From the NCBI GenBank assembly GCA_045628605.1, contig JAZQPR010000262.1:449-64448 (forward strand): a stretch of DNA of 64,000 bases. Direction: 5' to 3'. Under the pieces are notes generated by a model. That model worked only from the letters and a program-made list of their open reading frames with translations. It had not been told where the DNA came from and did no database searches. Below, in pieces: positions 1,924-42,842 of this stretch. A program made the position numbers and the translations under genes. Origin of the DNA: Oscillospiraceae bacterium (GTDB lineage Bacteria; Bacillota; Clostridia; Oscillospirales; Ruminococcaceae). Numbering within the stretch: position 1 is the first letter of the stretch; every line of letters starts with the position of its first letter.

Positions 1924-1925
1924 TC

Positions 1926-8236: not shown

Positions 8237-8238
8237 TT

Positions 8239-8937: not shown

Positions 8938-9064
8938 GGGGTTGTCCTCCTTTTTTGTTTATAAAAAACAATATCTGTTTTTCTTTAATTTTATTATATA
9001 TTTCTTATCTTACACGAAAGTTACATAATAAAAGTGTTTGCTTAAAAATTTTGCAAACACTTTT

Positions 9065-9118
9065 CAAAGCTCTGCTTTTAACAAGCAGAGGCGGGGGATA
9101 TCCTCTGTGTTGTTATAT
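9065..9118 (-). repeat. Full copy of the ~54-nt intergenic repeat
   Basis: caaagctctgcttttaacaagcagaggcgggggatatcctctgtgttgttatat. It abuts the kinase stop codon at 9119. Confidence 0.85.
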
Positions 9119-10890: not shown

Positions 10891-10914
10891 ACTTATTCTC
10901 CTTTTAGTTCGTTT

Positions 10915-10968
10915 CAAAGCTCTGCTTTTAACAAGCAGAGGCGGGGGATATTCTCTGTGTTGTTATAT
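10915..10968 (-). repeat. Full copy of the ~54-nt intergenic repeat
   Basis: One mismatch to the 9065 copy over 54 nt. It abuts the stop codon of the upstream L,D-transpeptidase gene. Confidence 0.85.
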
Positions 10969-19251: not shown

Positions 19252-19308
19252 ATGGATAAAGATTAAAAAAATCAGGTTATTCTTTTTCTGACAGGAGAAG
19301 TGGAAAAT

Positions 19309-27543: not shown

Positions 27544-28884
27544 TTAATCTGCCTTTATTAAATTTTTGAATACATCTCCGCGTTCTTCAAAATTTTTGAA
27601 GTCATTATAGCTTGCTGCGGCAGGGGACATAACGCATGTTTTTCCCTTTGATGTTACTTTTTTTGCGATTTTTACAGCTTCGTCAAGTTTTCCTGTCAGT
27701 GAAAGTTTATTTAAAAATTTGGCGTCACTGTATTTTTCATTTATTTCTTCAAATATTCTTTTTCCGGAGTCAGACATCAAAATTATATTTGATACTGAAC
27801 AGTCTGAGAGAAATGTGATCAGTGATGAGTAATCAATGCCTCTGTCCATGCCTCCGATAATAATTGTGTCGACGTCTTTCAGACTTGTTACAGCCTGTAT
27901 GGCAGCTTCACAGATGGTTGAGATAGAGTCGTCATAATATTTGACTCCATTATATTCACCGGCATATTCAAGTCTGTGGGGAAGTGGTGAATATGAGCAT
28001 GCTGCGTTCAGTATCTGATCAAACGGAAGACCGCATGAAATATTGCATGCTGCAGCTGCAGCTGCGATATTGTAAAAATTGTGTTTCCCGACAAGTTTTA
28101 CTTCGTTTTCGGAAATGGCGTATGAATTTCCGTTATATATAAAATTTGAATTGTCTGAGAAGATATCAGCAGATCTGTCATTCTGAGAAATCGTAATTAC
28201 TTTTCCTGAGTGTTCATCGTGTGCCGGCTTTAAGTCTGAATTGCATATCAGTATGCCGTTTTCTGACTGATGTCTGTAGATATTTCTTTTTGCGTCTGCA
28301 TATTTTTCAAATGTTCCGTAATGATCAAGATGTTCTTCGAACAGATTTAAAAATAATGAAAATTCAGGAGATACGGATATGTTTTCAAGCTGATGGCAGG
28401 AAAGTTCAAAAACGATTTTTGTATCTTTTTTTATTTCATCTATGACATCAAATGAAGGAATTCCGATATTTCCTGTAAGAACGCAGTCGACTCCGCAAGT
28501 TTTTAGTATGTGGTGGATAAGTGTGGTTGTTGTACTTTTGCCTTTTGTTCCTGTGATGCCTATTATCTGAGAAGCATATTTTTCAATAAAAACGGAAGTC
28601 TGAGAAGTGATTTCGGCTTTGTATGATTCAAAAGGCTTTTCTAGAACTACTCCCGGACTTTTGAAAACTATATCATAGTTATCTATTACGCTTTGATAAT
28701 TGTCGCCTGTGATCGTTTTTACAGAATCAGGCAGATCTCCGTTTACGGGGTTTTTGTCAGCAATTGCAACAGATTTGAATCCGCCGGCTTCATTAAGTCG
28801 TCTGTATGTTGATTTTCCTTCACGTCCAAAGCCGAGGATAAGTACATTTTTGTTTTCAATATATTTCTTTAATAAATTCAGCAT
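27544..28884 (-). CDS. murD: UDP-MurNAc-L-Ala--glutamate ligase (MurD family; possible MurD2)
   Basis: GFGREGKS Rossmann and Mur ligase ATP site GITGTKGKSTTT. It is not flanked by dcw genes. Its start overlaps the upstream gene by 7 nt. Confidence 0.8.
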   Translation of the reverse strand: MLNLLKKYIENKNVLILGFGREGKSTYRRLNEAGGFKSVAIADKNPVNGDLPDSVKTITGDNYQSVIDNYDIVFKSPGVVLEKPFESYKAEITSQTSVFIEKYASQIIGITGTKGKSTTTTLIHHILKTCGVDCVLTGNIGIPSFDVIDEIKKDTKIVFELSCHQLENISVSPEFSLFLNLFEEHLDHYGTFEKYADAKRNIYRHQSENGILICNSDLKPAHDEHSGKVITISQNDRSADIFSDNSNFIYNGNSYAISENEVKLVGKHNFYNIAAAAAACNISCGLPFDQILNAACSYSPLPHRLEYAGEYNGVKYYDDSISTICEAAIQAVTSLKDVDTIIIGGMDRGIDYSSLITFLSDCSVSNIILMSDSGKRIFEEINEKYSDAKFLNKLSLTGKLDEAVKIAKKVTSKGKTCVMSPAAASYNDFKNFEERGDVFKNLIKAD

Positions 28885-30248
28885 AATTTTATATCCCTCA
28901 TTATTCTGTCAAATTCTTCAGGAAGATTGTTTTTTTCGTTATAGTATTCATAAAGCGGATTCTTTTTGCTGCTGTATTCTTTGAAGAGCTCTGTGTTTTT
29001 ATAGAATTCAAAAAGATACGGCAGCTTTTCGCCTGATGATATTGCTCTGTTTACTGCAGAAGAAACCGCAAAATTCACTTCATCTCTGCTTCCGACACAT
29101 TCAAAAGGTTTTTCATTTGCAATACCGATAAGTTTTTTGAATGTTTCGAGCATTTCGGTATCATCAAACATATTTTTGCCGATTATATCCGATATTTCAT
29201 CCACTGACAGAAAAGGTGAAAGTATAAGGCTTACAAAAAGACATTTTGAACAGTTTCCGCACCATATATCTTTCTTGCTTCCTCTGTTGCAGCTTCTGAA
29301 AATGCTGTGATATTTTTTCAGTCCTGAAAAATATTTTGCGATCTGAAATTCGCTCCAGGGACGAAGAAGACTGAAATAGTGAACACCGGAATCAATATAT
29401 TTTTTTTCATATTCTGCAAAGTCATTTTCAAATTCGAAGCTCTTTGAGTACTGATGATTGACTGTGGAATCCTTTACGGTGCTTTCATTAGCACTTGCTT
29501 CATTTGAAAGAACAACATATTTTTTTGAGTTTATATAGGCTGCAATAACAGCTGAAAATGCAACTATAGCAGAAAAAGGTGTATGACCGTTCAGATAGCC
29601 TTCTGAATTCAGTCTTATCATATTTGCATCAAGGGTACGGGTTGACAGAACAATTGAATCATCTGTAAAACCTGCAGCGTATGCAGACTGATAGATCGAA
29701 TTTCTTCTGTTGATAAGATAGCATGCGTTTTCATCTCTCATCTCGCTGAGAATATTTAATGTTACGATCGAGTCTTTGCCGCCGCCGACCGGAATAAGAC
29801 ATCCTTTAAGCTCTTTTTTTGACGGACCTGTGGCTGAAAGCCCATTCTGATCAGCAGCTGATTCAATTTTCATAAATGATTCAAAGTCAGCATCTATTCC
29901 GTTTATATAGAAAAATTCTCCGAGACCGTTAAAATACTGTGTCTTCCACCATTTTTCCTGATCATCGTCTATGCTTCCGCAAAGTATTCTGACCTTGGGA
30001 GAACATGTTATTTTCCAGTAGCTTATCAGTTCAACCATTCCAAGTGAAAAAACTAGTTTTTTCAGTACCGGATCATCTGTTACCGATTCAGGTGATCCTT
30101 TTTTTATTGTCCATTCCGGTGAAAAACAGGACAGTCCCTGTATTTCAAAATGATATCTGATCATTATCTTTTCTGAATCTTCATTCAGTTCATAGTTTTT
30201 ATACAGAAAAACAGGAAACTGAGATCTGAAAGTATTATAGTTTGACAT
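28878..30248 (-). CDS. PP-loop-like protein coupled to murD (candidate MurL-type epimerase)
   Basis: IPVGGGKDSIVTLNIL resembles the SGGxDS PP-loop. CGNCSKCLF motif. 456 aa. The function is inferred from context only. Confidence 0.4.
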   Translation of the reverse strand: MSNYNTFRSQFPVFLYKNYELNEDSEKIMIRYHFEIQGLSCFSPEWTIKKGSPESVTDDPVLKKLVFSLGMVELISYWKITCSPKVRILCGSIDDDQEKWWKTQYFNGLGEFFYINGIDADFESFMKIESAADQNGLSATGPSKKELKGCLIPVGGGKDSIVTLNILSEMRDENACYLINRRNSIYQSAYAAGFTDDSIVLSTRTLDANMIRLNSEGYLNGHTPFSAIVAFSAVIAAYINSKKYVVLSNEASANESTVKDSTVNHQYSKSFEFENDFAEYEKKYIDSGVHYFSLLRPWSEFQIAKYFSGLKKYHSIFRSCNRGSKKDIWCGNCSKCLFVSLILSPFLSVDEISDIIGKNMFDDTEMLETFKKLIGIANEKPFECVGSRDEVNFAVSSAVNRAISSGEKLPYLFEFYKNTELFKEYSSKKNPLYEYYNEKNNLPEEFDRIMRDIKLC

Positions 30249-30579: not shown

Positions 30580-30609
30580 TTGACTAGGCAGAAAAATATA
30601 TGATATAAT
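30580..30609 (+). promoter_or_regulatory. Promoter of the biosynthetic operon
   Basis: TTGACT, 18 nt, TGaTATAAT. Confidence 0.55.
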
Positions 30610-30640
30610 ACATAACAGCATATGGAAAATATGTGGTGAA

Positions 30641-31624
30641 TTGATAGTCAGAAAAATATATTATCAAGAAGAAATGGGGGCTTATGAACAAATGCCGGGA
30701 GATATTAAAAAAAGGGCATTTTTGTTTCAGGGTGTAGGAAGCGACATTGGAAGATCACTTAAAATGTTTAACAGTGATCAGCTGAATTATTTTAAGACTC
30801 TTTGTGAACAGGCGTCGGAACATTTGAATATTAATCTTCTCAGATATCAGGAAAACAAAGAAAGTACCGGTTATCTTCAGCAAAAATTTATTGAATGGGC
30901 GCTTACCGGATTATGTGACTGTACAGTATTTCATTCCTGTGTTGAATCAGGGATAGTACCTGATTATATCTGCGGTTACAGCCTTGGACTCAACAATGCC
31001 ATTTTTTGTGCCGGTTCAATCAGTCTTGAAGATTCTCTGGATATACTGTATGGTGTGGTCAGATGCATTTATGAAGCAGAGAAAATTCAGGACATCAGTT
31101 ATGATATGGGCATCATAATAGGTCTGGAAGCTGAAACAGTCAGCAGTATAATGACTACATTAAATATTGAAGACCGTGTTATGATCGCAAGTGAAAACTC
31201 AGAATATTTTATTGTAATTTCTGGTTATCAGGATGATGTTCAGCTTGTTCTGGACGCTGCTGCTGAGGAAGGTGCTCTAAAGTCATTTAAGCTTGGTGTA
31301 GCTTTTCCTTTTCACAGTTCGATTCTTGAAAGCTGTTCTTCTCCGTATTTTAAAAATATTAATGATATTACATTTTACGACTGCAAAACTCCGGTTGTTT
31401 CGATTTATGATCAGAGAATTCTGACAAAAGCAGAAGATATTCATAAAGAACAGCTGAGAAATTTTCTTGAGATGATGCACTGGAGAACGTCCATGGAATA
31501 TCTGGAATGTATAGGAGTTACGGATTTTTGGGATATGAGTGCTACAGGGGCTATGAAGAAATCCACTGTTCTGACGAGTGGCGATTCTTCTTTTAAAACA
31601 ATTAAAACATTAAACAAATTATAA
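30641..31624 (+). CDS. Discrete acyltransferase (FabD/malonyl-CoA:ACP transacylase fold)
   Basis: AFLFQGVGSD, nucleophile elbow GYSLG, FPFHSS. The start is uncertain (TTG 30641 or ATG 30674). Confidence 0.8.
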   Translation: MIVRKIYYQEEMGAYEQMPGDIKKRAFLFQGVGSDIGRSLKMFNSDQLNYFKTLCEQASEHLNINLLRYQENKESTGYLQQKFIEWALTGLCDCTVFHSCVESGIVPDYICGYSLGLNNAIFCAGSISLEDSLDILYGVVRCIYEAEKIQDISYDMGIIIGLEAETVSSIMTTLNIEDRVMIASENSEYFIVISGYQDDVQLVLDAAAEEGALKSFKLGVAFPFHSSILESCSSPYFKNINDITFYDCKTPVVSIYDQRILTKAEDIHKEQLRNFLEMMHWRTSMEYLECIGVTDFWDMSATGAMKKSTVLTSGDSSFKTIKTLNKL

Positions 31625-31644
31625 TATTTTGGAGGATTTATAAT

Positions 31645-31950
31645 ATGAAAACATTAACAGAAGAAATAAAAGCAGAGCTTAGAACAATGATCTTTGAATA
31701 CTTTGCAGATGAATGCGAAACAGATATTGATGAATTAAGCGATGAAACAAATGTTATGGATGAACTCGACGCTGATTCATTAATGGTTGTTGAACTTATC
31801 GAAGCTGCAAAGAAAAAATATGATCTTAACATTAAGCTTCAGACAGTAGGAAAATTCCTTTTAAAGAATCCTGCTGAAACACTCGGCGAAATTGTTGATC
31901 TGTTCAATAAGCTCTATATCTACGAAGACGATATAATCAACGAGGCTTAA
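31645..31950 (+). CDS. Acyl carrier protein 1
   Basis: 101 aa, acidic, phosphopantetheine site DADSLMVVEL. Confidence 0.85.
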   Translation: MKTLTEEIKAELRTMIFEYFADECETDIDELSDETNVMDELDADSLMVVELIEAAKKKYDLNIKLQTVGKFLLKNPAETLGEIVDLFNKLYIYEDDIINEA

Positions 31951-31952
31951 TA

Positions 31953-32666
31953 ATGGCAGAAAATGAAATTCAATCAGGAATTTCAATTTTATCAGTTAAA
32001 GACAGTACGGGAATTGTTGAGATTTTCAGTGATAAGAAAAATCACATCACAATTCCCGAATTTGTAGATATAAATATATTGGAAAAATGGATAACAGATA
32101 ATAAATTAAAATCCGTTATCATTACCGGAAGAGGCAGACATTTTTCAAACGGTGCTGATTTTTCACTGATAGAAAATTCCGAAGATTCAATAGACGAGCT
32201 TTTTGAAAGAATTCAAAAAGGAAGAGAACTTCTGAATGTTATAGAAAAACTGCCTGTAGTTACTGCTGCAGCTATAAACGGCTCATGTTTCGGTGCCGGT
32301 CTTGAAATTGCATTATCATGTAACTTCAGAATCTGTTCTCAAAAATCTTTTTTTGCTTTGCCTGAAGCATCACGCGGAATAATTCCGGGGCTTAACGGAG
32401 TGGAAAGACTTTCACATCTTTGCGGAAGAAGAAAAGCAATACAGATAGCATTGTCAGGCGAAATGTTAAATCCTGAAGATGCTTTGAATGCAGGAATTGT
32501 TGATATGATCTCTGAAGAACCTCTGGAAGCAGCTTTAAAGTTTGTTCAGGAACTGACTGATAACAAAACGGTTCATCAGGTTTCAGCGATTGCAAATGCA
32601 TCTGATATGAGGTCAGATCCAAAGGATTTTGTAAATGCAGTAAAAGAGATGATTTCAAATGGTTAG
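31953..32666 (+). CDS. Enoyl-CoA hydratase/isomerase (crotonase) family protein 1
   Basis: GRGRHFSNGADF, NGSCFGAGLEIAL, LPEASRGIIPG. Confidence 0.85.
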   Translation: MAENEIQSGISILSVKDSTGIVEIFSDKKNHITIPEFVDINILEKWITDNKLKSVIITGRGRHFSNGADFSLIENSEDSIDELFERIQKGRELLNVIEKLPVVTAAAINGSCFGAGLEIALSCNFRICSQKSFFALPEASRGIIPGLNGVERLSHLCGRRKAIQIALSGEMLNPEDALNAGIVDMISEEPLEAALKFVQELTDNKTVHQVSAIANASDMRSDPKDFVNAVKEMISNG

Positions 32667-33051
32667 TATTTATAATGTTACTGCAGAAGGAACGGATCTT
32701 GACTCTTATGGCCATGTTAATAATTCAGTATATTTAAAATATATTGAAAATGCAAGATGGCATTTTTTTAAGAGCAAAGGATTTCTGGAAAGAATTCTTG
32801 ATGCAGGCATGTTTATTGTTGTACTTGAAACTACAATAAGATATGTAAATGAGATAAAAATTTTTGACGAGATAGAGATTAAAACGGAATGGTCATGTGA
32901 AGGAGAAATTGTTATCAACACTCACAGACTGACTGACAGAAAAACCGGAAAATTGTTTGCAAAAGCAAAATCAAGACTTGCTTTTGTTACAAATGAACGT
33001 TTGATATGCGATATTCCGGAGGATGTAAAAAAAGAAATAGAAGGGGCATGA
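32659..33051 (+). CDS. Hotdog-fold acyl thioesterase (4HBT/YbgC-like)
   Basis: YGHVNNSVYLKYIENARWHFF. 130 aa. Confidence 0.8.
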   Translation: MVSIYNVTAEGTDLDSYGHVNNSVYLKYIENARWHFFKSKGFLERILDAGMFIVVLETTIRYVNEIKIFDEIEIKTEWSCEGEIVINTHRLTDRKTGKLFAKAKSRLAFVTNERLICDIPEDVKKEIEGA

Positions 33052-33665
33052 TTTTTTTGGATTTCAATTACCTGTTCAAATGTAAAACAGATTTTTGTGA
33101 CTGTGACTTTGATCAGCTTGAAAAACAGCTTATAAAAGCCGTTGATGACGGCTGTGATTTTATATTATTCAGATTTAATTCCTCAGTACAGATCTTTCCT
33201 TCAAAGGATTACCTGAAGAAGCTAAATACTCTTTTTTCCGAATTACCTGCAGTAAAAGTTATTGCCGGTGAAGATTACAGTAATATAAGTCCTGAACTTA
33301 TGCTGATGTTTGATATCAGACTTGGAATGAATGAGTATAAGTGGAATGAAGGTGCCGTTTGTACTGAGGATTTTGTGTATAATTTTGATGAGCGAACAAA
33401 ACTTTTATTCGGCGAATCAGCATCAGAGATCTCAGTTCGTTCAGACATTGTTGTGCGAACACCTTTCAGTGAAAATGAAACTGATTTTGATGAATTTCTT
33501 GATAAATACTTTAAAAAAATAATAGGAGAAAAAAGCAGGGAACAGCTGGATGCGATAAAACAGTGTATGTCTCATGTAAAATCTGCTGATTTTGATGAAA
33601 ATGCGTTGTTTAAAGAAGAATCACTCTGTTTCTCAAAGCTGATAATTAAAAAAAATGAAAATTGA
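33048..33665 (+). CDS. Hypothetical protein, possibly a degenerate crotonase-fold protein
   Basis: ATGA overlap with the upstream stop. FILFRFNSS...VKVIAGEDYSNISPELMLMFDIRLG follows crotonase spacing but lacks the glycine-rich oxyanion segment. Confidence 0.5.
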   Translation: MIFLDFNYLFKCKTDFCDCDFDQLEKQLIKAVDDGCDFILFRFNSSVQIFPSKDYLKKLNTLFSELPAVKVIAGEDYSNISPELMLMFDIRLGMNEYKWNEGAVCTEDFVYNFDERTKLLFGESASEISVRSDIVVRTPFSENETDFDEFLDKYFKKIIGEKSREQLDAIKQCMSHVKSADFDENALFKEESLCFSKLIIKKNEN

Positions 33666-34353
33666 ATTTGAATCATTGGATCTTGAGATCACAGACGGTA
33701 CTGCAGTTATTTCCATGCACGCTCCTATGTCAAACAAAATGACAACATTGTTCATCAATGATTATATAAAAGCTTGCAGCGAATGTATAAATGCAGCACC
33801 AAACGGACTGATTATTACAGGCGGAAAGCGCTTCAGTACAGGTGCTGATGTTGATCAGCTTACTGAATCATTTATAAGTCAGACTGTTACTGACAGCGAA
33901 GGAAATGTCATTAAAGTTCCTGAGGAACATGTTTTAAACAAAAAGATTTTTACATCCTTATGGAATGTAAAATTTCCGGTCATCAGTGCGATCGGAGGTT
34001 TCTGCATAGGCTCCGGATGTGAAATTGCCTTAAGCTCACATTTCAGAGTGTGCGAGGCAAATGCAACCATCGGACTTCCTGAATCAACGTTCGGATTGCT
34101 TCCGGGTATGGGCGGAATTGCTCGTTCAAGTCAGATCTCAGGACTTTCAAGAGCACTTGAAATAGTGTATTCCGGTGAAATGTATTCTGCAGAGGAAGCA
34201 TACAGATTAGGACTCGCAGATATCGTTACTCCTAAAAAAGAAAGCTTTGATACTTCTGTTAAGCTCATGAATTTTATTCTGAGCCAGGGTGAGTATAAAA
34301 AAGCTGATAAAACAGAATACCTTAGAAAATTTCAAGAGGTGACCATTAATTAA
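33655..34353 (+). CDS. Enoyl-CoA hydratase/isomerase (crotonase) family protein 2
   Basis: GGKRFSTGADV, GGFCIGSGCEIAL, LPESTFGLLPG. Confidence 0.85.
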   Translation: MKIEFESLDLEITDGTAVISMHAPMSNKMTTLFINDYIKACSECINAAPNGLIITGGKRFSTGADVDQLTESFISQTVTDSEGNVIKVPEEHVLNKKIFTSLWNVKFPVISAIGGFCIGSGCEIALSSHFRVCEANATIGLPESTFGLLPGMGGIARSSQISGLSRALEIVYSGEMYSAEEAYRLGLADIVTPKKESFDTSVKLMNFILSQGEYKKADKTEYLRKFQEVTIN

Positions 34354-35501
34354 TGAAAATCGGATTGATCGGAAACGGAAAAATGGGAAAAGAGATTTTT
34401 TGGTTCTTTTTCAATGATTCAAATTATCTCAAAGTAGCATGCGTCGAGGGCGCAGAAGAATTCAAGGCTCTGATTGAAAAAAATCTCAGAAAAATGAATA
34501 AAAGAGGAACACTTTCAGATGCAGAGCTTGAAGAAAAACTCAACAGCTTTGAAGTTTCATATGATTTTAATATCCTTTCTGACTGTGATCTTGTCATTGA
34601 AGCGATTTTTGAAAATGAAGACCTTAAAGCAGATGTTTTTTCAAAAGTTGAGAAAATTGTATCTGACAAATGTATTCTGGTTACAAACACTTCTTCGATC
34701 CCGCTCGGTAAAGTATTTTCAAAATGTGAAAATAAATCCAGATGCGTAGGAATGCATTTTTTCTATCCGGTTAAGCTTTCAGGTTTTATTGAACTTAATA
34801 CTGAAGAATTCACTTCAGAAGATACAGAAAAAATCATTTCTTCTCTTATTGAAAAGGGCGATAAAAAAACAGTCAGATTTTCCGGAAATTACAATATGTA
34901 TCTTAATAAGGTTATTTCTATTGCAGTTTCTCACTCATTGTTATGGAAAGATAAAAATAATTATTCTTATTCCGAAATCAATGATATTCTAGAAAACAGA
35001 TTCATGACATATTCAGCGTTTACAATGGTTGATTCTGTCGGAATCGGCATTATAAGTACAAGCAACGTATATTTTTCTGATGAAAGATGTAAATACCTGC
35101 TTGATATTTCCGGAAGTGCTTTTAAAGAACTGGCTGATGCCGGATGCGGTAAAGGTCCCGGATGCTTTATGGACTTTGTGACAGGCAGAGAAAAGGATAA
35201 GGAGATATCCGGTGACAGCGAAAAGGAAAATGATCTTCTTCTTTCATTGTCTGCACTGCTCTTAAATGATATTGTAGGTGCCTGTCTTAATTCGGGAACC
35301 GACAGTTCCTCACTGAAAAAAGCTGTTGAAGATGTTCTTAATCTTTCAAATCAGTTTGACGATCTTTATGCCGGATTTGGCTATGACAATATTTCTGCTT
35401 GTTTGTCAGAATATTATAACGACACAAAGTGTTTGATATACAAACCATATTCAAGAGAAGAATTTGAATTAATATATGCAAAAAAAGGAGAGGTAAAATG
35501 A
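34353..35501 (+). CDS. 3-hydroxyacyl-CoA dehydrogenase family protein
   Basis: Rossmann IGLIGNGKMGKEI, TNTSSIPL, HFFYPV. TAATG overlap with the upstream gene. Confidence 0.82.
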   Translation: MKIGLIGNGKMGKEIFWFFFNDSNYLKVACVEGAEEFKALIEKNLRKMNKRGTLSDAELEEKLNSFEVSYDFNILSDCDLVIEAIFENEDLKADVFSKVEKIVSDKCILVTNTSSIPLGKVFSKCENKSRCVGMHFFYPVKLSGFIELNTEEFTSEDTEKIISSLIEKGDKKTVRFSGNYNMYLNKVISIAVSHSLLWKDKNNYSYSEINDILENRFMTYSAFTMVDSVGIGIISTSNVYFSDERCKYLLDISGSAFKELADAGCGKGPGCFMDFVTGREKDKEISGDSEKENDLLLSLSALLLNDIVGACLNSGTDSSSLKKAVEDVLNLSNQFDDLYAGFGYDNISACLSEYYNDTKCLIYKPYSREEFELIYAKKGEVK

Positions 35502-36721
35502 AAAAGAAAGTAGTTGTAACAGGTATGGGAATGGTTTCCGCACTTGGTGCAAATGTTGCTGAAAACTGGGACAATCTTGTAAAAGGAAAATCAGGTATTA
35601 CGCCGATCTCAATAATCGACGCTTCAGTGCTTGACACTCAGATAGCTGCTCAGGCAGATGACAAATTTGAGGATTTTGTAAATGAAAGGATCCAGAAGCG
35701 TCAGCGTAAACAAATGACACGTACAGTCAGAATGTGGATGGCTTCCGCAATTGAAGCTGTAGAAGATTCAAAGATCGATTTTGAAAATTATGACTGTACA
35801 AAGGCCGGCGTTATTGTTGGTCTGATCGATACTTCAATGAAAGAAGAGGAAAGGGCTATTTCCGAATCTCATATTATTGTTCGTAACATGCCTAACTCAG
35901 CTCCGGCGTGGGTTTCAATGAAATATGGTCTTAAAGGACCGAGCTTTAATCTTTCAACTGCCTGTGCCTCTGCTGCTTATGCTGTCAGTGTGGCTTCACA
36001 GATGATCGAAAGCGGGATCTGTGACATGTTTGTTGTAGGCGGTGTGGGTTCTTCCATAAACTATGATCAGCTTCACGGATTTAATCAGATCATGGCAATG
36101 TCTGCAAATAATGACAATCCATCCACAGCATGCTGTCCTTTTTCAAAAAGACGTGACGGTTTTGTTCTGGGTGAAGGTGCAGGTGCACTTGTTCTTGAGT
36201 CTGAAGAATCAGCAAAAAGAAGAAATGCAAAAATATACTGTGAGCTGTCAGGCTATGCAATGACAGAGGAAGCATGTGATATTACTGCTCCTCAGGCTGA
36301 CGGTGTCGGAATGGCTGAGTGTATGAAGAAAGCTCTTGATTCTGCCGGAATTACCACAGATGATGTTGATTATATAAACGCTCACGGAACATCAACCTAT
36401 CTTAACGATAAGTATGAGACAATGGCTATAAAGTCTGTTTTCGGAGATAAGGCATATAAGATACCGGTTTCATCCACAAAGTCAATGCTTGGACACGGAC
36501 TGGCTGCGAGCGGTGCCTTTGAAGCAATTACAACGATCTTATCCATCAATAACGGTATTATAACACCAACCATAAATTATGATGATCCTGATCCGGAACT
36601 GGATCTTGACTATGTTCCGAACACAGCGAGAAAAGCAGAGATAAATACTGCTATTTCAAATTCATTCGGATTTGGCGGACATAATGCTACACTCGTATTT
36701 TCAAAATATAAGGAGGGTTGA
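35498..36721 (+). CDS. Beta-ketoacyl synthase (FabF/KAS II-like, Cys-His-His)
   Basis: STACASAAYA (Cys), AHGTST (His), KSMLGHGLAASG (His), FGFGGHNATLVF. ATGA overlap upstream. Confidence 0.9.
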   Translation: MKKKVVVTGMGMVSALGANVAENWDNLVKGKSGITPISIIDASVLDTQIAAQADDKFEDFVNERIQKRQRKQMTRTVRMWMASAIEAVEDSKIDFENYDCTKAGVIVGLIDTSMKEEERAISESHIIVRNMPNSAPAWVSMKYGLKGPSFNLSTACASAAYAVSVASQMIESGICDMFVVGGVGSSINYDQLHGFNQIMAMSANNDNPSTACCPFSKRRDGFVLGEGAGALVLESEESAKRRNAKIYCELSGYAMTEEACDITAPQADGVGMAECMKKALDSAGITTDDVDYINAHGTSTYLNDKYETMAIKSVFGDKAYKIPVSSTKSMLGHGLAASGAFEAITTILSINNGIITPTINYDDPDPELDLDYVPNTARKAEINTAISNSFGFGGHNATLVFSKYKEG

Positions 36722-36722
36722 T

Positions 36723-37064
36723 ATGCCGGTTATTCAGTACAGTTCAAATTATCATTTCAAGAATGATGAGATCAATGAAGTAGCAGGAAAATTTACGGAA
36801 CTTGCTTCAAAAGTTCTTGAAAAACCACTTCCTGCAGTTATGTTTATGCACAGTGAAATGGAAATGTATAAAGCAGGAAATGACGATATCTGCGGATATG
36901 TTGAATTCAAATATGTTGGCAGCGCATCTTCTGAACAGAAAACCCAGCTTTGTGACGGAGCACTTGAAATTCTCACAGAATATACAAAAGTTGATCCTCA
37001 CAGAGTATATATTAATATAATAGAAAATCCCAGGGAAAATGCCTGGAAGTATACGAAAAAATAA
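36723..37064 (+). CDS. MIF/tautomerase-superfamily-like protein
   Basis: Starts MPVIQ (Pro at position 2 after Met) following AGGAGGG. DPHRVYINIIE parallels the MIF C-terminal motif. ~113 aa. Confidence 0.55.
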   Translation: MPVIQYSSNYHFKNDEINEVAGKFTELASKVLEKPLPAVMFMHSEMEMYKAGNDDICGYVEFKYVGSASSEQKTQLCDGALEILTEYTKVDPHRVYINIIENPRENAWKYTKK

Positions 37065-37091
37065 CTATTGAACATCTAAAGGAGTTTTATT

Positions 37092-38225
37092 ATGCAGTGG
37101 TCTATCAGAACCTTACTTAATCCAGTAATGGTAAGAAGTTTAATTTACGGAGTAAATCCTATCGATCTTGAATATGTTCTCAGCAAGGTTGAGAGTGTTC
37201 CTCTTATGAGCGGAAAGGCTCTTGAAAAAGCATGGCTTGAACAGTGGAATGCAAAATCTGACAAGTTTATGAAGTCAGCAGCCGAAGCAGAAAAAAAAGG
37301 AAACAAAATAACAGCACGTGAAATGTACAGACTTGCTTCACAGTGTGACTATGCAAGCTATCTTATAAATTCAGATGATATCGAAGGCAAGAAAGTAGTT
37401 TATAAAAGACTTGAAAACAGCTACAGAAAGCTTACAGAAAATTTTGAAACAGAGACAAAATATACAGAGATACCTTTCCGTGACGGAAAAGTACTTCCTT
37501 CATATATTCATTATCCTGATCAGTCAAAATTTACAGCACCTTATCCTGTTGCTGTAATTTTCGCAGGTCTTGGCAGCAGTAAGGAAGAGTTAAACACACT
37601 TTCAAGACCGCTTGTAGACAGAGGCGTTGCTGTAGTTGCATGTGACCAGCCCGGAACAGGTGCTGCTCTGTTTGATTATGACATTAAACTTACAGCAGAT
37701 GAATTACTCCTGTCATTTGAGAAAATTATGGAGTATATCTCAGGTGACAGTAAGCTTGACAATTCACGTATCTGTTCATATGGTTTATGTATGGGCGGTG
37801 GATATGCATACAAATTTGCTTCAAGCTATGAAAATGTTAAATGCTGCGTAAATCTTTTCCCGCTGTTTATCGGAAAAATTACACCTGATAAGCTTCCGAG
37901 ATGGATGAAATCAGGAAAATGGGCTGATTTCCAGTCAGGAAAATATGAAAAGGAAGAAGATTACTACAACCAGATGGCAGTTCTTGAAGAAGGTGCTGTA
38001 AACTGTGATTATCTTCTTGCTCATGGACAGTATGACAACTGGATGGGACCTGAAGCATGCGAACATATGTTTGACAAGGCAACAGGATTTAAAGAAAAAA
38101 TGGTTATGGAAGAACCTCCTGTATTTTCAACAAAAGAAGCTATTACACATACAATGCCTGTAGGCGAACAGATGCACTGGCTTAAACATGATGTTTCAGA
38201 CTGGATCGTTGAACATCTTAAATAA
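37092..38225 (+). CDS. Alpha/beta hydrolase with N-terminal helical domain; Cys at the nucleophile elbow
   Basis: VAVIFAGLGSSKEEL and G-L-C-M-G (SYGLCMGGGYA) in place of GxSxG. Confidence 0.7.
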   Translation: MQWSIRTLLNPVMVRSLIYGVNPIDLEYVLSKVESVPLMSGKALEKAWLEQWNAKSDKFMKSAAEAEKKGNKITAREMYRLASQCDYASYLINSDDIEGKKVVYKRLENSYRKLTENFETETKYTEIPFRDGKVLPSYIHYPDQSKFTAPYPVAVIFAGLGSSKEELNTLSRPLVDRGVAVVACDQPGTGAALFDYDIKLTADELLLSFEKIMEYISGDSKLDNSRICSYGLCMGGGYAYKFASSYENVKCCVNLFPLFIGKITPDKLPRWMKSGKWADFQSGKYEKEEDYYNQMAVLEEGAVNCDYLLAHGQYDNWMGPEACEHMFDKATGFKEKMVMEEPPVFSTKEAITHTMPVGEQMHWLKHDVSDWIVEHLK

Positions 38226-38272
38226 GAACAAAAATTGGAATGAATGTTTTTTTTATTTTATGAAAGGTAGAG

Positions 38273-39841
38273 TTGACAAGAATGAACAAATTTATCGATG
38301 ATTTAAACAGATACGCACTTGAAAAACCGGATTCACCGCTTATTACCATTGACGGTGTTACAGTATCCTACGGCCAGTTTGCAAAAGACATTATTAATAT
38401 TTCATCAGCTCTTTCAGAATTTGGTATTCATGCTGATGAAAAGGTTGGTTTAATCATCCCTAACAGTATTCAGTGGTACAGATTGTTCTGGTCTGCAATA
38501 AAAATAGGTGCTCAGCCTGTTCCGATCGATCCTCAGAGCGGTGAAGTTGAATTAAAGAGACTTATTGATACAGCAGATACAGAAATTTTATTTATTGCTG
38601 ATCATTACAGAAACAATAATATTATTTCAGCAGTGGATAAAGTAGTTGATATGTTTGACTTTGTAAAAAAAGTCGTAGTTATCAGTGATTTTGACAAATC
38701 AAGTGTTTCATCAGAAAAGTTTATGTCCTATGATGAATTTATGGCTTTGGGAAAAGGTGAAGATCTTCCTGTATTCAGTGTTGATTCAACACATGTAATG
38801 TCTCTTGCCTGTACATCAGGAAGTACAGGAAATCCTAAAGTTCTCACTGTTCCTTATGAGGGATTTTATGATGCTATAGTAGATATTTCCGATTACCTTG
38901 GATTTACTTCAGAGGACACAATGATGATAGGCATGCCTCTTTATCATCAGGGCGGTTTCGGAATGGGATCACAGATCGTTGTAAAAGGCGGACATGTTAT
39001 TTATCAGCCTCAGTTTGAACCGATAAATTTCCTGCAGACAGTTGAAAAATATAAAGTAACTGCTATTCAGCTTACTTCAACACTCGCAAAGATCCTTCTC
39101 TCAGTTCCAGATTTTGATTCCTATGATATTTCAGCTGTAAGAGTATGTTATTTTGCAGGTGAAGTTCTTCCTAAGGAAATAGCAGATATTCTCGTAGATA
39201 AATTCGGTATCCGTGTTATTAACGTTATCGGTTCATCAGAAACTGCAACAATGGTAGTCTGGGATTCAGCCAAAGACAGGGAAACAGATCCGAGTGATTT
39301 CAGAGAACTGCCGTTTACAAAAGCCAGAGTTATTGATGAAAATGGTGAAGATGTTGAGGACGGAGTTGCCGGTGAACTTTGCATATATACTTCTGCAGTT
39401 ATATTTAACTACAGAAAAAATCCTTCTGAATCTGAAAAAGTCGTATATTATAATGACAAGCGCTGGTTCAGAACAGGGGATATGACAGTCAGACTTCCTG
39501 ACGGAAGACTTCGTTTTGTAGGAAGAAACAAGCGTATTATTAAACGAGGCGCAAACCTTGTTCATGCTGAGGAAGTTGAAGCTTTTATACTTTCACATCC
39601 AAAAGTTCAGGCATGTGCTGTTACAGCTGAGGATCATCCTGTTATCGGTCAGCAGATAGTTGCATATATTCAGCCTGTAAACCATGAAAATATAACAAGA
39701 GGAGATCTTGCAAGATTCTTCAACGGAAAGCTTTCTGCTTACAAGGTGCCTGATAAAGTAGTTCTTACTGAAGATCTTCCTAAGGATATTGGAAAAATTC
39801 AGTTTAAATATATAAGAAAGGCTGCCGTTGTTAATAAGTAA
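38273..39841 (+). CDS. AMP-dependent synthetase/ligase 1 (adenylate-forming)
   Basis: CTSGSTGNPK, YHQGGFG, GSSET, FRTGDM, C-terminal GKIQFKYIRK. The start is TTG 38273 or ATG 38282. Confidence 0.88.
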   Translation: MTRMNKFIDDLNRYALEKPDSPLITIDGVTVSYGQFAKDIINISSALSEFGIHADEKVGLIIPNSIQWYRLFWSAIKIGAQPVPIDPQSGEVELKRLIDTADTEILFIADHYRNNNIISAVDKVVDMFDFVKKVVVISDFDKSSVSSEKFMSYDEFMALGKGEDLPVFSVDSTHVMSLACTSGSTGNPKVLTVPYEGFYDAIVDISDYLGFTSEDTMMIGMPLYHQGGFGMGSQIVVKGGHVIYQPQFEPINFLQTVEKYKVTAIQLTSTLAKILLSVPDFDSYDISAVRVCYFAGEVLPKEIADILVDKFGIRVINVIGSSETATMVVWDSAKDRETDPSDFRELPFTKARVIDENGEDVEDGVAGELCIYTSAVIFNYRKNPSESEKVVYYNDKRWFRTGDMTVRLPDGRLRFVGRNKRIIKRGANLVHAEEVEAFILSHPKVQACAVTAEDHPVIGQQIVAYIQPVNHENITRGDLARFFNGKLSAYKVPDKVVLTEDLPKDIGKIQFKYIRKAAVVNK

Positions 39842-39936
39842 CAATTTTTTTCGATAGTATTGAATTATCGAAATATTGATGTATAATATAATTATTATTT
39901 ATTTTTTAATTGTAAAAATATTGAAGGAGTTTTATT

Positions 39937-40188
39937 ATGAACAATTTAAATTGGGACGAATTTGCAAAAAATATTTCAGATTATGTAGGAATAGACGCAG
40001 ACAAGATTACAAAGGATACTGATCTTTATGAAGATCTTTGCATGGATTCACTTGGAATCTTCAGCATGGGAATGTTTCTTAACGGTATTTATAAACTTGA
40101 AGTTCCGCTTTCATCTGTAGCTGTTATCAGCAAGGTCGGCGATATGTTCAATCTCTTAAACGAGGAAGGCGTTCCTTCAAATGGCTGA
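39937..40188 (+). CDS. Carrier protein 2 (ACP/PCP-like)
   Basis: 83 aa, LCMDSLGIFSM phosphopantetheine site. Confidence 0.8.
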   Translation: MNNLNWDEFAKNISDYVGIDADKITKDTDLYEDLCMDSLGIFSMGMFLNGIYKLEVPLSSVAVISKVGDMFNLLNEEGVPSNG

Positions 40189-40897
40189 TATTAAATTATG
40201 TTTTTTCCCTCATGCAGGAGGATCTGCGATGGGGTATAAAAACTTTAAAATGTTTCTTGACAGTTCTGTAACTCCGGTTCCGATAGAACCGGCAGGAAGA
40301 GGAACAAGAATTTCTGAAAAGCCGTTTACGGATATCAGAGAATGCGTTGAGGATCTTTTTGAGCATTACAAGGATATCTTCACAGAAGGAAATACAGTTT
40401 TCTTTGGTCACAGCATGGGAAGCTTACTGGCTTATGAACTTATAAAGCTTATGAAAAAGAAAAACTGTCCTTTGCCGATTCATTATTTTTCTTCCGGAAG
40501 AGTATCTTATCCTTCACTTATTCCTGAAAAATTTACAGGACTTTCAAAGCTTGATGATGAAGAATTTCTTTCAAGATTCAGCGAATCAGGCGGATTTCCT
40601 GACATGATACTTAAAAATAAAGATCTTATGGCTATGCTTTTGCCGGTTTTAAGAGCTGACGTAAAAATGGTCGATGATTATGTTCTGGATATGAATGATC
40701 TTGCTGTTGACTGTGATATTACAGTTTTGTACGGAAAAAATGATACAATGTACGATGGCTCAGATTTTGAATCATGGAAGACACTTACCAGAGGCTCATG
40801 CGATATTTATGGATTTAACGGAAACCATTTCTATTTCAGCGAACCAGGTGTAAAAAAAGAATTATGTTCTTTGATCAATAAAATTATCATAAAATAA
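40181..40897 (+). CDS. Type II thioesterase
   Basis: FPHAGGSA, GHSMGSLLAYE, C-terminal GNHFY. 8-nt overlap with the carrier protein gene. Confidence 0.88.
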   Translation: MADIKLCFFPHAGGSAMGYKNFKMFLDSSVTPVPIEPAGRGTRISEKPFTDIRECVEDLFEHYKDIFTEGNTVFFGHSMGSLLAYELIKLMKKKNCPLPIHYFSSGRVSYPSLIPEKFTGLSKLDDEEFLSRFSESGGFPDMILKNKDLMAMLLPVLRADVKMVDDYVLDMNDLAVDCDITVLYGKNDTMYDGSDFESWKTLTRGSCDIYGFNGNHFYFSEPGVKKELCSLINKIIIK

Positions 40898-40917
40898 AAT
40901 TAGGGGGATTAATTATT

Positions 40918-42489
40918 ATGTCAAAAACTTTTAATGAAACATATGCTGATTTTCTGCAGAGATTTGCTGAAGATCATATGGTTGTTGCATGTGACGGAGC
41001 TACTTTAAATGTAAAACAGTTTAAAAACAGAATTGATGAACTTACTGCTCATCTTGCAAAGCTCGGAATCAAGAAGGGAATGGGTGTTGGTTACTGTATA
41101 GATAACTGCTCTGACAATCTTCCTTTATTTATTGCTATAGCAAGACTTGGTGCTTATGCAGTTCCTCAGTTTTTCGGATATCCTGATTTTGTAAAAACCA
41201 ATATGTTCAAAAATACAGGAGTAAAAGTTATTGTTGCTGAAACAGCACAGGCTGAAAGCCTCAAAAAGCTTGCTGAGGAAAACGGTGCTGACTATCAGGT
41301 TACTGTTCTTGGTGAACTCGATGGTTTTTATTCATTAAAGGGTGCATGCAGCGACAATATCAATTTGGATGATGTTGTTGTTAAGAATCCTGAAAAAGAT
41401 CTTCCTTTACTTATTGCTACAAGTTCAGGTACTACAGGTATTCCTAAACTCGTCAGAATCTCACAGGAAAACTTTGGTTCAGAGATCCTTATTGTAGGCG
41501 AAATGGTTACACTCGGCAGAACAGCTGAAAATCCTTATGCTACAGTTGCAGCTGCATTCCCGCTTTCAACTTCAGTTATCAGTATTATTCTCGGAAGCGT
41601 ATTTATTGGTGACTATATGATCTATTCTGCAGATACATCACCTATGACATATCTTAAAAATATACAGGATTACAAGTGTACTTATATGTGTGCACCTCCT
41701 GCATATTATGAAGCACTTCTTATATTCAAGGATAAATGTCCATATGATCTTTCATCTCTCGGTACTGTTGGTGCCGGAATGGACTTCTGTCCTCCTGCTC
41801 TTCTCAGCAGACTCAGAACAATGTTCAAGAACCTTAATCTTTATGTTAACGGATACGGACTTGTTGAGACAAGCAACGTATTTATGCATACAGCAGTTGA
41901 TCTTACAGGCGAGATAACAGGAACCAGCACACTTGATGTTGCCGGATGTGTTGATAATATCATCAAGGTTGTTGATGAAAACGGCAATGAAGTTAATGTC
42001 GGCGAAACAGGTCAGCTGTTAGTCAAAGGTCCAAGCGTTATCAACGGATATCTGAAGGCTGAGAACAATGACTGCTTCGAAGACGGATGGTTCAAATCAG
42101 GCGATATCGTTCGACTCGAAGGTGATAAGAAGATCACACTTCTCGGAAGACAGAAGTACTTTATTAAGAGAGGCGGAAAATCTGTATCTCCAATAGTTGT
42201 TCAGGATGCGATCAACAAGACTCCCGGTATCAAGGCTTCAGGTGTTGTCGGTGCTCCTCATCCGCTTTTCGGTGAAATGATCTGGGCTTTTGTAGTTAAG
42301 GAACAGGGTTCTGAAGTTACTCTTAAAGATATCAAGGCTAAATGTAAAGAAGTACTTCCTGTTTATATGCTTCCTGATCAGGTTGAGTTTATTGATGCAA
42401 TTCCGATGAAAAAAGGTGTCGGAAAAGTTGATTTTGAAACTCTTAAGGAAATGGCAAAACAGGGTGTTGAGAAAATCAATTTTAAATAA
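40918..42489 (+). CDS. AMP-dependent synthetase/ligase 2 (adenylate-forming)
   Basis: TSSGTTGIPK, GYGLVETS, FKSGDIV, GVGKVDF. Confidence 0.88.
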   Translation: MSKTFNETYADFLQRFAEDHMVVACDGATLNVKQFKNRIDELTAHLAKLGIKKGMGVGYCIDNCSDNLPLFIAIARLGAYAVPQFFGYPDFVKTNMFKNTGVKVIVAETAQAESLKKLAEENGADYQVTVLGELDGFYSLKGACSDNINLDDVVVKNPEKDLPLLIATSSGTTGIPKLVRISQENFGSEILIVGEMVTLGRTAENPYATVAAAFPLSTSVISIILGSVFIGDYMIYSADTSPMTYLKNIQDYKCTYMCAPPAYYEALLIFKDKCPYDLSSLGTVGAGMDFCPPALLSRLRTMFKNLNLYVNGYGLVETSNVFMHTAVDLTGEITGTSTLDVAGCVDNIIKVVDENGNEVNVGETGQLLVKGPSVINGYLKAENNDCFEDGWFKSGDIVRLEGDKKITLLGRQKYFIKRGGKSVSPIVVQDAINKTPGIKASGVVGAPHPLFGEMIWAFVVKEQGSEVTLKDIKAKCKEVLPVYMLPDQVEFIDAIPMKKGVGKVDFETLKEMAKQGVEKINFK

Positions 42490-42518
42490 TAGCATGATTT
42501 ATTAAATATTTCAAAAAA

Positions 42519-42551
42519 GTCTCGTATTCATTTGAATATGAGACTTTTTTT
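42519..42551 (+). terminator. Rho-independent terminator ending the biosynthetic operon
   Basis: gtctcgtattca/tgaatatgagac stem followed by T7. Confidence 0.8.
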
Positions 42552-42561
42552 GAAAAAAATG

Positions 42562-42590
42562 ATGACAAAATGATTTTTTTATGATATAAT
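42562..42590 (+). promoter_or_regulatory. Promoter of the mgtE leader
   Basis: ATGACA, 17 nt, TGaTATAAT. Confidence 0.5.
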
Positions 42591-42634
42591 AAACATATTA
42601 GTGGATTATTGATACTTTTTACTATTGAAAGCAG

Positions 42635-42733
42635 AGGTGAGTTAAGTGGATACAGGAGGGCAAAGCAGCACGTACCGAAGTAAGCGGTATTCGTACTGTG
42701 AAATATTGAGATCTTATGTGCATTTAGCTCATG
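42635..42733 (+). promoter_or_regulatory. Structured 5' leader, possible M-box (Mg2+) riboswitch
   Basis: ~245-nt leader before mgtE. AGGTGAG at the 5' side and GTGCATTTAGCTCATG at the 3' side resemble M-box conserved ends, but the core is shorter than the B. subtilis example I recall. Confidence 0.35.
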
Positions 42734-42842
42734 TTAATAATATTATATAATACAGTATGAATACTGTGATCATGACGTTTCGTGTTCTATAAACCCCAAA
42801 TCCTGATTTTGTAAATTAACAAAATGTCTGGAGGATTAGTTT

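Follow-up and report, generated by a model that had tools for sequence, protein, structure and literature searches.

A conserved two-module operon of fibre-degrading Oscillospiraceae and Ruminococcus that joins a FabF-type ketosynthase and beta-oxidation-type enzymes to a Cys-nucleophile hydrolase cassette

Described systems that come close to the operon reported here include the ligase-primed, type II polyketide synthase (PKS)-like pathways to cispentacin (Amc) and coronafacic acid (Cfa). Crotonases that act on thioesters of acyl carrier protein (ACP) have precedents in FabM, RpfF, and the ECH1 and ECH2 enzymes of PKSs, as do 3-hydroxyacyl dehydrogenases (HADHs) in enzymes of the FkbK/ZmaG/ClbD type; Ayg1p and Wdyg1p, hydrolases of a fold considered below, belong to fungal DHN-melanin. 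The AntI/Ayg1/DHPON hydrolases are described as cutting C-C bonds next to carbonyls, and AntI, from the Photorhabdus anthraquinone pathway, as taking a polyketide bound to ACP as its substrate (PMC11165489). The aryl-polyene 'yellow affinity substances' of cellulolytic clostridia are products of cex/faf clusters and derive from phenylacetate and malonate (PMC12144888, PMC11839114); cex is built around CexF, a type I PKS that works iteratively, together with two KASIII enzymes and a phosphopantetheinyl transferase (PPTase) (PMC12144888). Here we describe an operon of an Oscillospiraceae bacterium (assembly GCA_045628605.1, contig JAZQPR010000262.1, positions 449 to 64,448; this whole stretch of 64,000 nucleotides is called the window) which we read, with somewhat more confidence than doubt, as a specialised, non-housekeeping metabolite pathway, ligase-primed and resembling fatty-acid synthase (FAS), lacking an enoyl reductase, and built from two modules.

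The 14 co-directional open reading frames (ORFs) of the operon (Table 1) divide into module A, comprising a discrete acyltransferase (AT), the carrier protein ACP1, the crotonase ECHa, a hotdog thioesterase, orf5, the crotonase ECHb, an HADH, and a ketosynthase (KS); and module B, comprising a tautomerase with an N-terminal catalytic proline (Pro1), an alpha/beta hydrolase (ABH), the adenylate-forming ligase LIG1, the carrier protein ACP2, a type II thioesterase (TEII), and here also a second ligase, LIG2. Family calls were made with Pfam and NCBIfam profiles, and nearest structures were taken from a sequence search of the PDB; the profiles bear out the gene order and enzyme families that an original prediction, made from the letters of the sequence, had read from motifs, including the Cys-His-His KS, the Cys-elbow hydrolase, the Pro1 MIF-type tautomerase, and the NAD-type HADH. 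That prediction had counted 13 genes; a single same-strand operon is indeed what we see, but both its own list and the ORF calls amount to 14. Among these 14 ORFs the profiles detect no FabH, short-chain dehydrogenase/reductase (SDR) ketoreductase, FabZ/FabA, enoyl reductase, or acetyl-CoA carboxylase (Acc), nor any chain-length factor (CLF), cyclase, condensation domain, PPTase, regulator, or transporter. The predicted lack of FAS II, aromatic type II PKS, and nonribosomal peptide synthetase (NRPS) parts, and of a PPTase, regulator, or exporter inside the operon, is therefore sustained, and keto-reduction and dehydration can come only from the HADH and the crotonases, whose catalytic residues are intact.

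The original prediction also considered the operon an orphan, which it is not. A hydrolase alignment, run against a single genome from each of 185,579 species, gave 125 confirmed stretches; we kept the best 80 of these as loci and compared all 14 proteins with them by tblastn. The full collinear order AT-ACP1-ECHa-hotdog-[ORF]-ECHb-HADH-KS-MIF-ABH-LIG1-ACP2-TEII recurs in 50 of the 80 loci, among them cultured Ruminococcus flavefaciens (FD-1, Y1, YAD2003, SAb67, and ND2009) and R. albus (AR67 and KH2T6), together with many metagenome-assembled genomes (MAGs) from rumen, hindgut, and human gut, so that the cluster is common to dozens of fibre-degrading rumen and gut Ruminococcus species. Beyond those 50, two loci have the hydrolase shifted ahead of KS, and among the rest several are short or are cut off by the end of a contig. 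Relative to the window proteins, identity runs from 24% for AT up to 79% for ACP2, with LIG1, ACP2, and KS best conserved, and all catalytic residues that we checked are invariant or nearly so in 59 to 81 orthologs per protein; intact catalytic residues at such identities, combined with synteny, argue for a working pathway under purifying selection. Thirteen genes are conserved across the cluster family, and the fourteenth, LIG2, is lineage-restricted. The nearest relative is an Oscillospiraceae MAG (locus L003), whose hydrolase is about 90% identical and whose flanks are the same. A tblastn search of PLSDB returned no plasmid copy; we read the operon as chromosomal and inherited vertically within fibre-degrading Oscillospiraceae and Ruminococcus. 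Clustering of the flanking ORFs revealed no universal transporter, regulator, or PPTase beside the cluster: recurrent neighbours are limited to the S-component of an energy-coupling factor (ECF) transporter, in about 23 R. flavefaciens-type loci, and to lineage-specific genes on the opposite strand. In those loci the S-component gene immediately precedes AT in the same orientation (e.g. L047, 2372-3007, and L071, 2128-3318). As a local rearrangement in an otherwise complete cluster, the ABH gene stands between HADH and KS in L024, L026, and L028.

The two modules are also found apart. Stand-alone module B, consisting of the hydrolase, one or two ligases, a carrier protein, and in some cases TEII and the tautomerase, with a minimal form of four genes, occurs in [Clostridium] polysaccharolyticum, a Lachnoclostridium MAG, two further MAGs, and MAGs of Chloroflexota, Fibrobacter, Spirochaetales, and Deltaproteobacteria; wherever the flanks were examined, the genes next to it are unrelated. 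In the cassettes at L087, L088, L033, and L013, from Spirochaetales, Deltaproteobacteria, Chloroflexota, and Lachnospiraceae-type genomes, the Cys-hydrolase is joined by two ANL ligases and a carrier protein, and the stand-alone cassette appears to be an independent functional unit, as yet uncharacterised. The short cassette of C. polysaccharolyticum (L013) is preceded by an ECF A/T module and a DUF4430 protein (5673-9798). In Pseudobacteroides cellulosolvens (L068, 11140-12722) the cassette ligase is split into two overlapping ORFs, reflecting either a frameshift, a pseudogene, or a sequencing error; we considered L068 as a cex cluster and rejected it, as it holds just ABH, the split ligase, an ACP, and TEII beside sulfate-assimilation genes. 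Module A (KS, ACP, AT, two crotonases, hotdog thioesterase, and HADH) recurs in three other architectures (L083, L089, and L090), always with KASIII and B12-binding radical SAM enzymes; individual variants add a PPTase, flavodoxins, BtrH_N and an extra ACP, an ABC/FtsX exporter, an aldehyde:ferredoxin oxidoreductase, or a CDP-alcohol phosphatidyltransferase, and the distant variant L090 has two stand-alone condensation (PF00668) proteins. Recurrence with KASIII, PPTase, condensation domains, and an exporter argues that module A is biosynthetic rather than catabolic.

AT is a divergent FabD-like enzyme whose start is uncertain (TTG at 30641 in the listed ORF, with an in-frame ATG at 30674). It scores 110.1 bits against the fabD model TIGR00128, whose equivalog cut-off is 260.9, and in the PDB it comes nearest to malonyl-CoA:ACP transacylases (E 2e-17). 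All 59 orthologs have the G-Y-S-x-G serine and His225, with an Arg kept nearby. ACP1 reaches at most 30.9 bits against AcpP equivalog models with cut-offs of 65-146, and retains its DSL serine in all 62 orthologs. Both crotonases are short (232-237 residues) and only 29% identical to each other, and each keeps an invariant catalytic Glu pair (E118 and E138 of ECHa, n=63; E123 and E143 of ECHb, n=67); the best PDB matches of ECHa are CoA-type hydratases and FadJ/FadB. The D15-x-x-G-H19-V-N-N motif of the hotdog thioesterase is likewise invariant (n=63). In HADH, the Rossmann GxGxxG, Ser114, His135, and Glu147 are conserved in 61-63 orthologs and PDB matches are HBD and the dehydrogenase domains of FadB; the NAD-binding domain alone is recognisable, the divergent C-terminal half giving no PF00725 match. 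KS is an elongating enzyme nearest to Bacillus subtilis FabF (E 4e-103), at 460 bits against TIGR03150 (cut-off 493.75) and 443.6 bits against PRK07314 (cut-off 387, passed), with the triad Cys156-His296-His333 and Lys328 invariant (n=68). L085/L086 (10001-11809) hold a cluster otherwise of the window type, flanked in the same way by MurL and MurD, in which a single FadB-like protein of 602 residues combines ECHb with HADH; such a fusion indicates that the two enzymes work on one substrate in succession. There, TEII is followed by a B12-binding radical SAM protein (DUF4080).

The fifth gene had been called a degenerate crotonase-like protein, a description that is plausible though not secure. 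Searches of orf5 against Pfam, NCBIfam, and the PDB gave no match, and a word-indexed search found only four close homologues; an ORF of 137-239 residues nonetheless occupies this position in 58 of 60 loci examined, hhalign joins its long and short forms as homologues (99.8%), and a profile of the position matches the ECHa profile at 89.6% probability (E 2e-6). The AlphaFold2 (AF2) model of orf5, built on a 5-sequence alignment, is too poor to use (pLDDT 51), and Foldseek returned nothing for it at E<=0.001, a few crotonase-fold entries appearing with non-significant scores only.

In module B, membership of the tautomerase in the MIF branch of its superfamily is indicated by the N-terminal catalytic Pro and the family signature (Pfam MIF 25.5 bits against a cut-off of 22; DmpI E 1.9e-6; MIF homologues in the PDB E 2e-5); its start is supported by gene calls of 113 residues in L001 and L002, and Met-Pro is invariant in 71/71 orthologs. 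LIG1 is the best-conserved enzyme of the cluster (55-70% identity over the 50 full loci), and it retains the A3 motif and A10 Lys in 72-73 orthologs, so that the motifs needed for both half-reactions are present. Its PDB neighbours are aryl, fatty, and amino-acid adenylating enzymes at similar scores: NRPS A domains and salicylate and DHB-AMP ligases, as well as feruloyl, 4-coumarate, and fatty acyl-CoA ligases (E ~1e-39 to 1e-29 over the whole set). ACP2 always adjoins LIG1 or LIG2 in the module-B and related loci examined and has an invariant DSL serine (n=74), as TEII has an invariant GHSxG motif (n=71). LIG2, only 24% identical to LIG1, is confined to the closest relatives of the window (L003-L006 and L008) and to stand-alone module-B cassettes, which suggests that module A may replace what LIG2 supplies elsewhere.

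The hydrolase of module B matches FrsA, and in the PDB the 2,6-dihydroxy-pseudo-oxynicotine (DHPON) hydrolase 2jbw (1e-12), Ayg1-type proteins (1e-10), and AntI (9e-9); its AF2 model (pLDDT 89.5) has the two-domain, FrsA-like alpha/beta fold of that family, the top Foldseek hits being 2jbw, 6hxa (AntI), FrsA, and Ayg1p (8qd1 among the top) at E 1e-18 to 1e-14 and TM 0.7-0.8. The Ser nucleophile of the AntI/Ayg1/DHPON family is absent from ABH: the elbow motif is G-L-C-M-G-G-G, with Cys in 81/81 orthologs and throughout the close clade, while remoter relatives mostly have Ser, and the triad Cys233-Asp315-His362 is invariant (n=81). An exhaustive search of 1.84 billion proteins found 22 representatives at E<=1e-30. 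ABH belongs to a distinct Cys clade of the retro-Claisen hydrolase fold. Its mode of action may resemble that of the AntI/Ayg1 enzymes, with a thioester acyl-enzyme as intermediate, or it might even run the fold as a thioester-dependent, Claisen-type coupling enzyme. Two rare homologues (P0098 and P0274) have Gly in place of the nucleophile Cys, P0098 with an internal deletion as well, and are probably inactive copies.

On our reading module A would be a chain-extension unit dependent on carrier protein, and module B would provide the second building block and process it. From this gene content we would infer the loading partners, the direction and order of the steps, and the product as follows: i) LIG1 would adenylate a carboxylic acid and load it onto ACP2, while AT would load malonyl onto ACP1; ii) KS would join malonyl-ACP1 with the acyl primer, in a single extension or iteratively; iii) HADH would reduce the beta-keto group and a crotonase would dehydrate the 3-hydroxyacyl thioester to the enoyl thioester; iv) as no enoyl reductase is encoded, the chain would remain unsaturated or beta-oxygenated, barring the action in trans of a housekeeping reductase; v) the tautomerase would fix a keto-enol or double-bond isomer; vi) ABH would capture a thioester or beta-dicarbonyl intermediate on Cys233 and then either off-load and trim it (retro-Claisen) or couple it to the module-A chain; and vii) TEII would edit mis-loaded carriers and the hotdog thioesterase would release the product.

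We wish to stress that several observations weigh against such a pathway. The family match of AT is weak (Acyl_transf_1 32.3 bits, cut-off 32.7). Both crotonases and the HADH are nearest to CoA-dependent enzymes of beta-oxidation, and to judge by sequence may act on CoA rather than ACP thioesters; nothing in the scheme accounts for two intact crotonases and a remnant; with one FabF-type KS and no CLF there is no obvious control of chain length; a PPTase, an exporter, and a regulator are absent from the operon and none is conserved beside the cluster; the upstream ECF S-component fits precursor uptake and salvage equally; and we found no biochemical, transcript, or metabolite data for any cluster member.

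What other pathway could be encoded? A specialised membrane-lipid or unusual fatty-acid pathway, which we regard as unlikely, would put a modified chain (unsaturated, hydroxylated, or carrying an unusual primer) into lipid, with a housekeeping enoyl reductase (FabK or FabI) completing each cycle in trans. The strongly FabF-like KS, the lack of an exporter in the cluster, the existence of crotonase-family enzymes such as FabM in FAS II, and the collinearity of the C. polysaccharolyticum module-A variant with a CDP-alcohol phosphatidyltransferase, an aldehyde:ferredoxin oxidoreductase, and a PPTase all speak for lipid, but parts typical of secondary metabolism (condensation domains, BtrH_N, and an ABC/FtsX exporter) accompany other module-A variants; the AntI/Ayg1-fold hydrolase, tautomerase, TEII, and stand-alone ligases are not lipid-synthesis parts; and the Cys-hydrolase family is small. 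Nor do we think it probable that the operon breaks down or salvages, on a carrier protein or CoA, a carboxylic acid taken up from plant or rumen material, a route in which activation by a ligase, hydration by a crotonase, oxidation by HADH, and a retro-Claisen step by the AntI-like hydrolase in place of a thiolase would accomplish beta-oxidative shortening: this would leave the Cys-His-His KS, the malonyl-type AT, and the two carriers, invariant active sites included, with no degradative role, the operon has no acyl-CoA dehydrogenase or thiolase, module A keeps company elsewhere with a PPTase, condensation domains, and an exporter, and in six phyla or lineages module B occurs by itself, with no ECH or HADH. 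Salvage would nevertheless accommodate the beta-oxidation lineage of the crotonases and HADH and the FadB-like ECH-HADH fusion in one relative, the cleavage of C-C bonds beside carbonyls by the hydrolase's structural relatives, and the ECF S-components upstream in many R. flavefaciens-type loci as well as the ECF module before the C. polysaccharolyticum cassette. That this is the organism's primary type II FAS is scarcely credible; AT, ACP, and a FabF-like KS do share one operon, but FabH, FabG, FabZ, an enoyl reductase, and Acc do not, the FabD and AcpP scores fall far short (110 against 260.9 bits, and at most 31 against 65-146), and the anchoring hydrolase turned up at only 125 stretches in the scan of 185,579 species genomes.

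Within the specialised, ligase-primed reading, a product can be named as a doubtful candidate. Primed by a ligase, lacking an enoyl reductase, and conserved in R. flavefaciens and its relatives, the KS/HADH/crotonase system might produce the yellow pigment or 'affinity substance' that these bacteria associate with cellulose: LIG1 would charge ACP2 with an aromatic acid such as phenylacetate or 3-phenylpropanoate, module A would extend it iteratively to an aryl-polyenoyl chain, and the Cys-hydrolase and tautomerase would finish or release it. The yellow pigment is a defining trait of R. flavefaciens (PMC8865330), of which strain DSM 25089 reportedly carries no cex genes and produces no celluxanthene (PMC12144888), and R. 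albus requires 3-phenylpropanoate for optimal growth on cellulose (PMC4300822). Were the pigment assignment true, the operon might account for pigmentation in a species lacking the celluxanthene cluster and the phenylpropanoate requirement of R. albus would also be explained. Carriage of the cluster by R. albus itself, and again the single FabF-type KS with no obvious chain-length control, count against it. R. albus is typically described as unpigmented.

Most junctions in the operon are tight. Six overlaps of 8, 4, 11, 1, 4, and 8 nt follow one another along it, the remaining junctions being gaps of 1-47 nt with the exception of 95 nt ahead of ACP2, and the five overlaps singled out by the original prediction are all as described (ECHa/hotdog, 8 nt at 32659; hotdog/orf5, ATGA at 33048; ECHb/HADH, 1 nt at 34353; HADH/KS, ATGA at 35498; ACP2/TEII, 8 nt at 40181). 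The G+C content of the operon (0.32-0.39) is the same as that of its surroundings. The predicted near-consensus promoter is present as a match at 11 of 12 positions, but because such sites across the region number 47 against a shuffle expectation of 46.4, it is plausible as a consensus match and does not amount to proof. The predicted strong terminator is evident: folding gives a hairpin of -22.9 kcal/mol followed by a U run (z = -7.54; 0/200 shuffles equally stable). A terminator scanner passes over the site on account of its very short loop. A 10/12 promoter-like site (39860-39887) lies inside the 95-nt gap ahead of ACP2 (39842-39936), whereas LIG1 and ACP2 abut in R. flavefaciens FD-1; a lineage-specific internal promoter driving ACP2-TEII-LIG2 is possible.

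Upstream of the operon, on the opposite strand, a MurD ligase overlaps a MurL-like protein, i.e. a UDP-MurNAc-L-Ala-L-Glu epimerase, here placing the L-Glu-then-epimerise route in a clostridial genome; the route is named after Xanthomonadales. The same pair stands beside the cluster in L003, L006, L023, L024, L026, and L085. Downstream are MgtE and pyruvate kinase, mgtE having a leader of about 290 nt (42552-42842) with an 11/12 promoter match (42562-42590) but no M-box or other Rfam family even at E<=1; nothing in the whole window reaches an Rfam gathering score. A protein with dockerin, AbfB, and GH16 domains (19300-21309) marks the organism as a fibre degrader that probably makes a cellulosome. 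Two response-regulator/histidine-kinase pairs (45-5755 and 8239-10917) are in a Bce-like arrangement, one beside FtsX-type and ABC ATPase genes and the other beside an ABC ATPase gene, and a hybrid kinase of 1209 residues (12316-15945) is the sole member of its 90%-identity cluster in the protein collection.

Table 1. Features of the operon and its surroundings in window coordinates, and of related architectures at the loci named
Feature	Coordinates	Strand	Evidence
Operon span	30641-42489	+	14 co-directional ORFs
Sigma-70-type promoter-like site	30580..30609	+	TTGACT-18-TATAAT, extended -10 TG, 11/12 consensus
AT, discrete divergent FabD-like acyltransferase	30641..31624	+	Pfam Acyl_transf_1, FabD TIGR00128
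ACP1, carrier protein 1, 101 aa	31645..31950	+	PP-binding 30.1 bits
ECHa, crotonase A, enoyl-CoA hydratase type	31953..32666	+	ECH_1 E 2e-32
Hotdog-fold thioesterase, 4HBT_2 / YbgC-FadM type	32659..33051	+	4HBT_2 E 2.5e-22; TIGR00051 54.6 bits
orf5, fast-evolving, putative degenerate crotonase-fold remnant	33048..33665	+	position and profile match
ECHb, crotonase B	33655..34353	+	ECH_1 E 2e-29
HADH, NAD-type 3-hydroxyacyl thioester dehydrogenase	34353..35501	+	3HCDH_N E 1.5e-36
KS, FabF-type elongating ketosynthase	35498..36721	+	ketoacyl-synt N and C domains
MIF / tautomerase-superfamily protein, 113 aa, begins MPVIQY	36723..37064	+	Pfam MIF
ABH, alpha/beta hydrolase, DHPON-hydrolase / AntI / Ayg1 / FrsA fold	37092..38225	+	FrsA-like E 2.7e-10
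LIG1, adenylate-forming ligase	38273..39841	+	AMP-binding and AMP-binding_C
ACP2, carrier protein 2, 83 aa	39937..40188	+	PP-binding 19.7 bits; NF002148 36 bits
TEII, type II thioesterase	40181..40897	+	Pfam Thioesterase E 2.4e-31
LIG2, adenylate-forming ligase, lineage-restricted accessory	40918..42489	+	AMP-binding and AMP-binding_C
Intrinsic terminator	42519..42551	+	21-pair hairpin, then U run
MurD ligase overlapping MurL-like epimerase	27544-30248	-	TIGR01087 316 bits; NF041275 240 bits (cut-off 700)
Stand-alone cassettes	L087 10001-14509; L088 8738-13294; L033 9565-14996; L013 10001-15279		Cys-hydrolase, two ANL ligases, carrier protein
Other module-A architectures	L083 240-15904; L089 1999-11607; L090 361-16534		same KS/ACP/AT/two ECH/hotdog/HADH set

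In the literature available to us we found neither a characterised pathway of this architecture nor a paper on this cluster. Standard cluster-finders can be expected to miss the operon, since it has no multidomain PKS or NRPS and relies for reduction and dehydration on beta-oxidation-type enzymes. Both R. flavefaciens and R. albus serve as reference cellulose degraders of rumen and hindgut, and very few of their small molecules are known; the combination of a FabF-type KS with beta-processing by HADH and crotonases, a clade-wide Cys in the AntI/Ayg1 fold, a Pro1 tautomerase, and a portable four-gene cassette (hydrolase, two ligases, and carrier protein) that recurs across at least five phyla is unreported. 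Once its product is known, the operon would represent a new route of carrier-protein-based chain building.

How, then, does the operon compare with established classes? It is not a housekeeping FAS II operon, lacking the parts listed above and falling below the FabD, AcpP, and FabF (TIGR03150) equivalog cut-offs while passing PRK07314; nor an aromatic type II PKS, as its one KS is nearest FabF with no second KS-fold ORF and no cyclase; nor an NRPS, as it has no PF00668; nor a PKS beta-branching cassette, as there is no HMG-CoA-synthase-type partner (no HMGS match) and KS keeps its active-site Cys. A beta-oxidation operon would have an acyl-CoA dehydrogenase and a thiolase, and here the sole thiolase-fold protein is the FabF-type KS. 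The crotonase Glu pairs, the HADH His-Glu pair, the ECH-HADH fusion in a relative, and the ligases do recall FadB/FadD logic, but the operon embeds a KS, an AT, and two carriers, and its HADH lacks a recognisable PF00725; unlike the ACP-dependent enzymes of the FabM/RpfF/FkbK type, its crotonases and HADH have CoA-dependent proteins as best PDB matches. Judged by Pfam and NCBIfam parts it is not an aryl-polyene cluster, having a single KS and no SDR ketoreductase, hotdog dehydratase, acyl/glycosyltransferase, or export gene. We rejected the gut-clostridial fatty-acid-amide (Oaa) pathway because the free-standing condensation enzyme that it is described as requiring, OaaC, has no counterpart in the operon. 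We also rejected identity with celluxanthene/flavoaffinin (cex/faf), comparing by the description of cex: the operon has no multidomain PKS, KASIII, or ACPS, and R. flavefaciens is reported to lack cex. The two nevertheless share a guild of cellulosomal anaerobes, an AMP-ligase, a stand-alone ACP, an alpha/beta hydrolase, and the lack of an enoyl reductase function, which makes a polyene chemically possible.

ABH shares with AntI, Ayg1p, Wdyg1p, and DHPON hydrolase the two-domain fold and the positions of Asp and His, but is only 18-20% identical to them, has a Cys nucleophile, and is partnered by two ANL ligases and a carrier protein rather than by a KS/CLF aromatic PKS. The closest concept for the operon as a whole is that of the ligase-primed 'type II PKS-like' systems such as cispentacin. 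Like Amc and Cfa, it sets a ligase beside a small carrier together with a discrete KS, tailoring enzymes, and a thioesterase, and has no aromatase or cyclase; unlike them, it has a single FabF-type KS with no CLF-like partner (238.5 bits against the AmcF model, cut-off 325; ACP2 is also sub-threshold against AmcB), processes the beta position with non-homologous enzymes, an NAD-type HADH and crotonases rather than SDR or hotdog enzymes, and adds an AntI-fold Cys hydrolase and a tautomerase. We conclude that this conserved composite cluster family is a variant of carrier-protein-dependent FAS/PKS-like biosynthesis.

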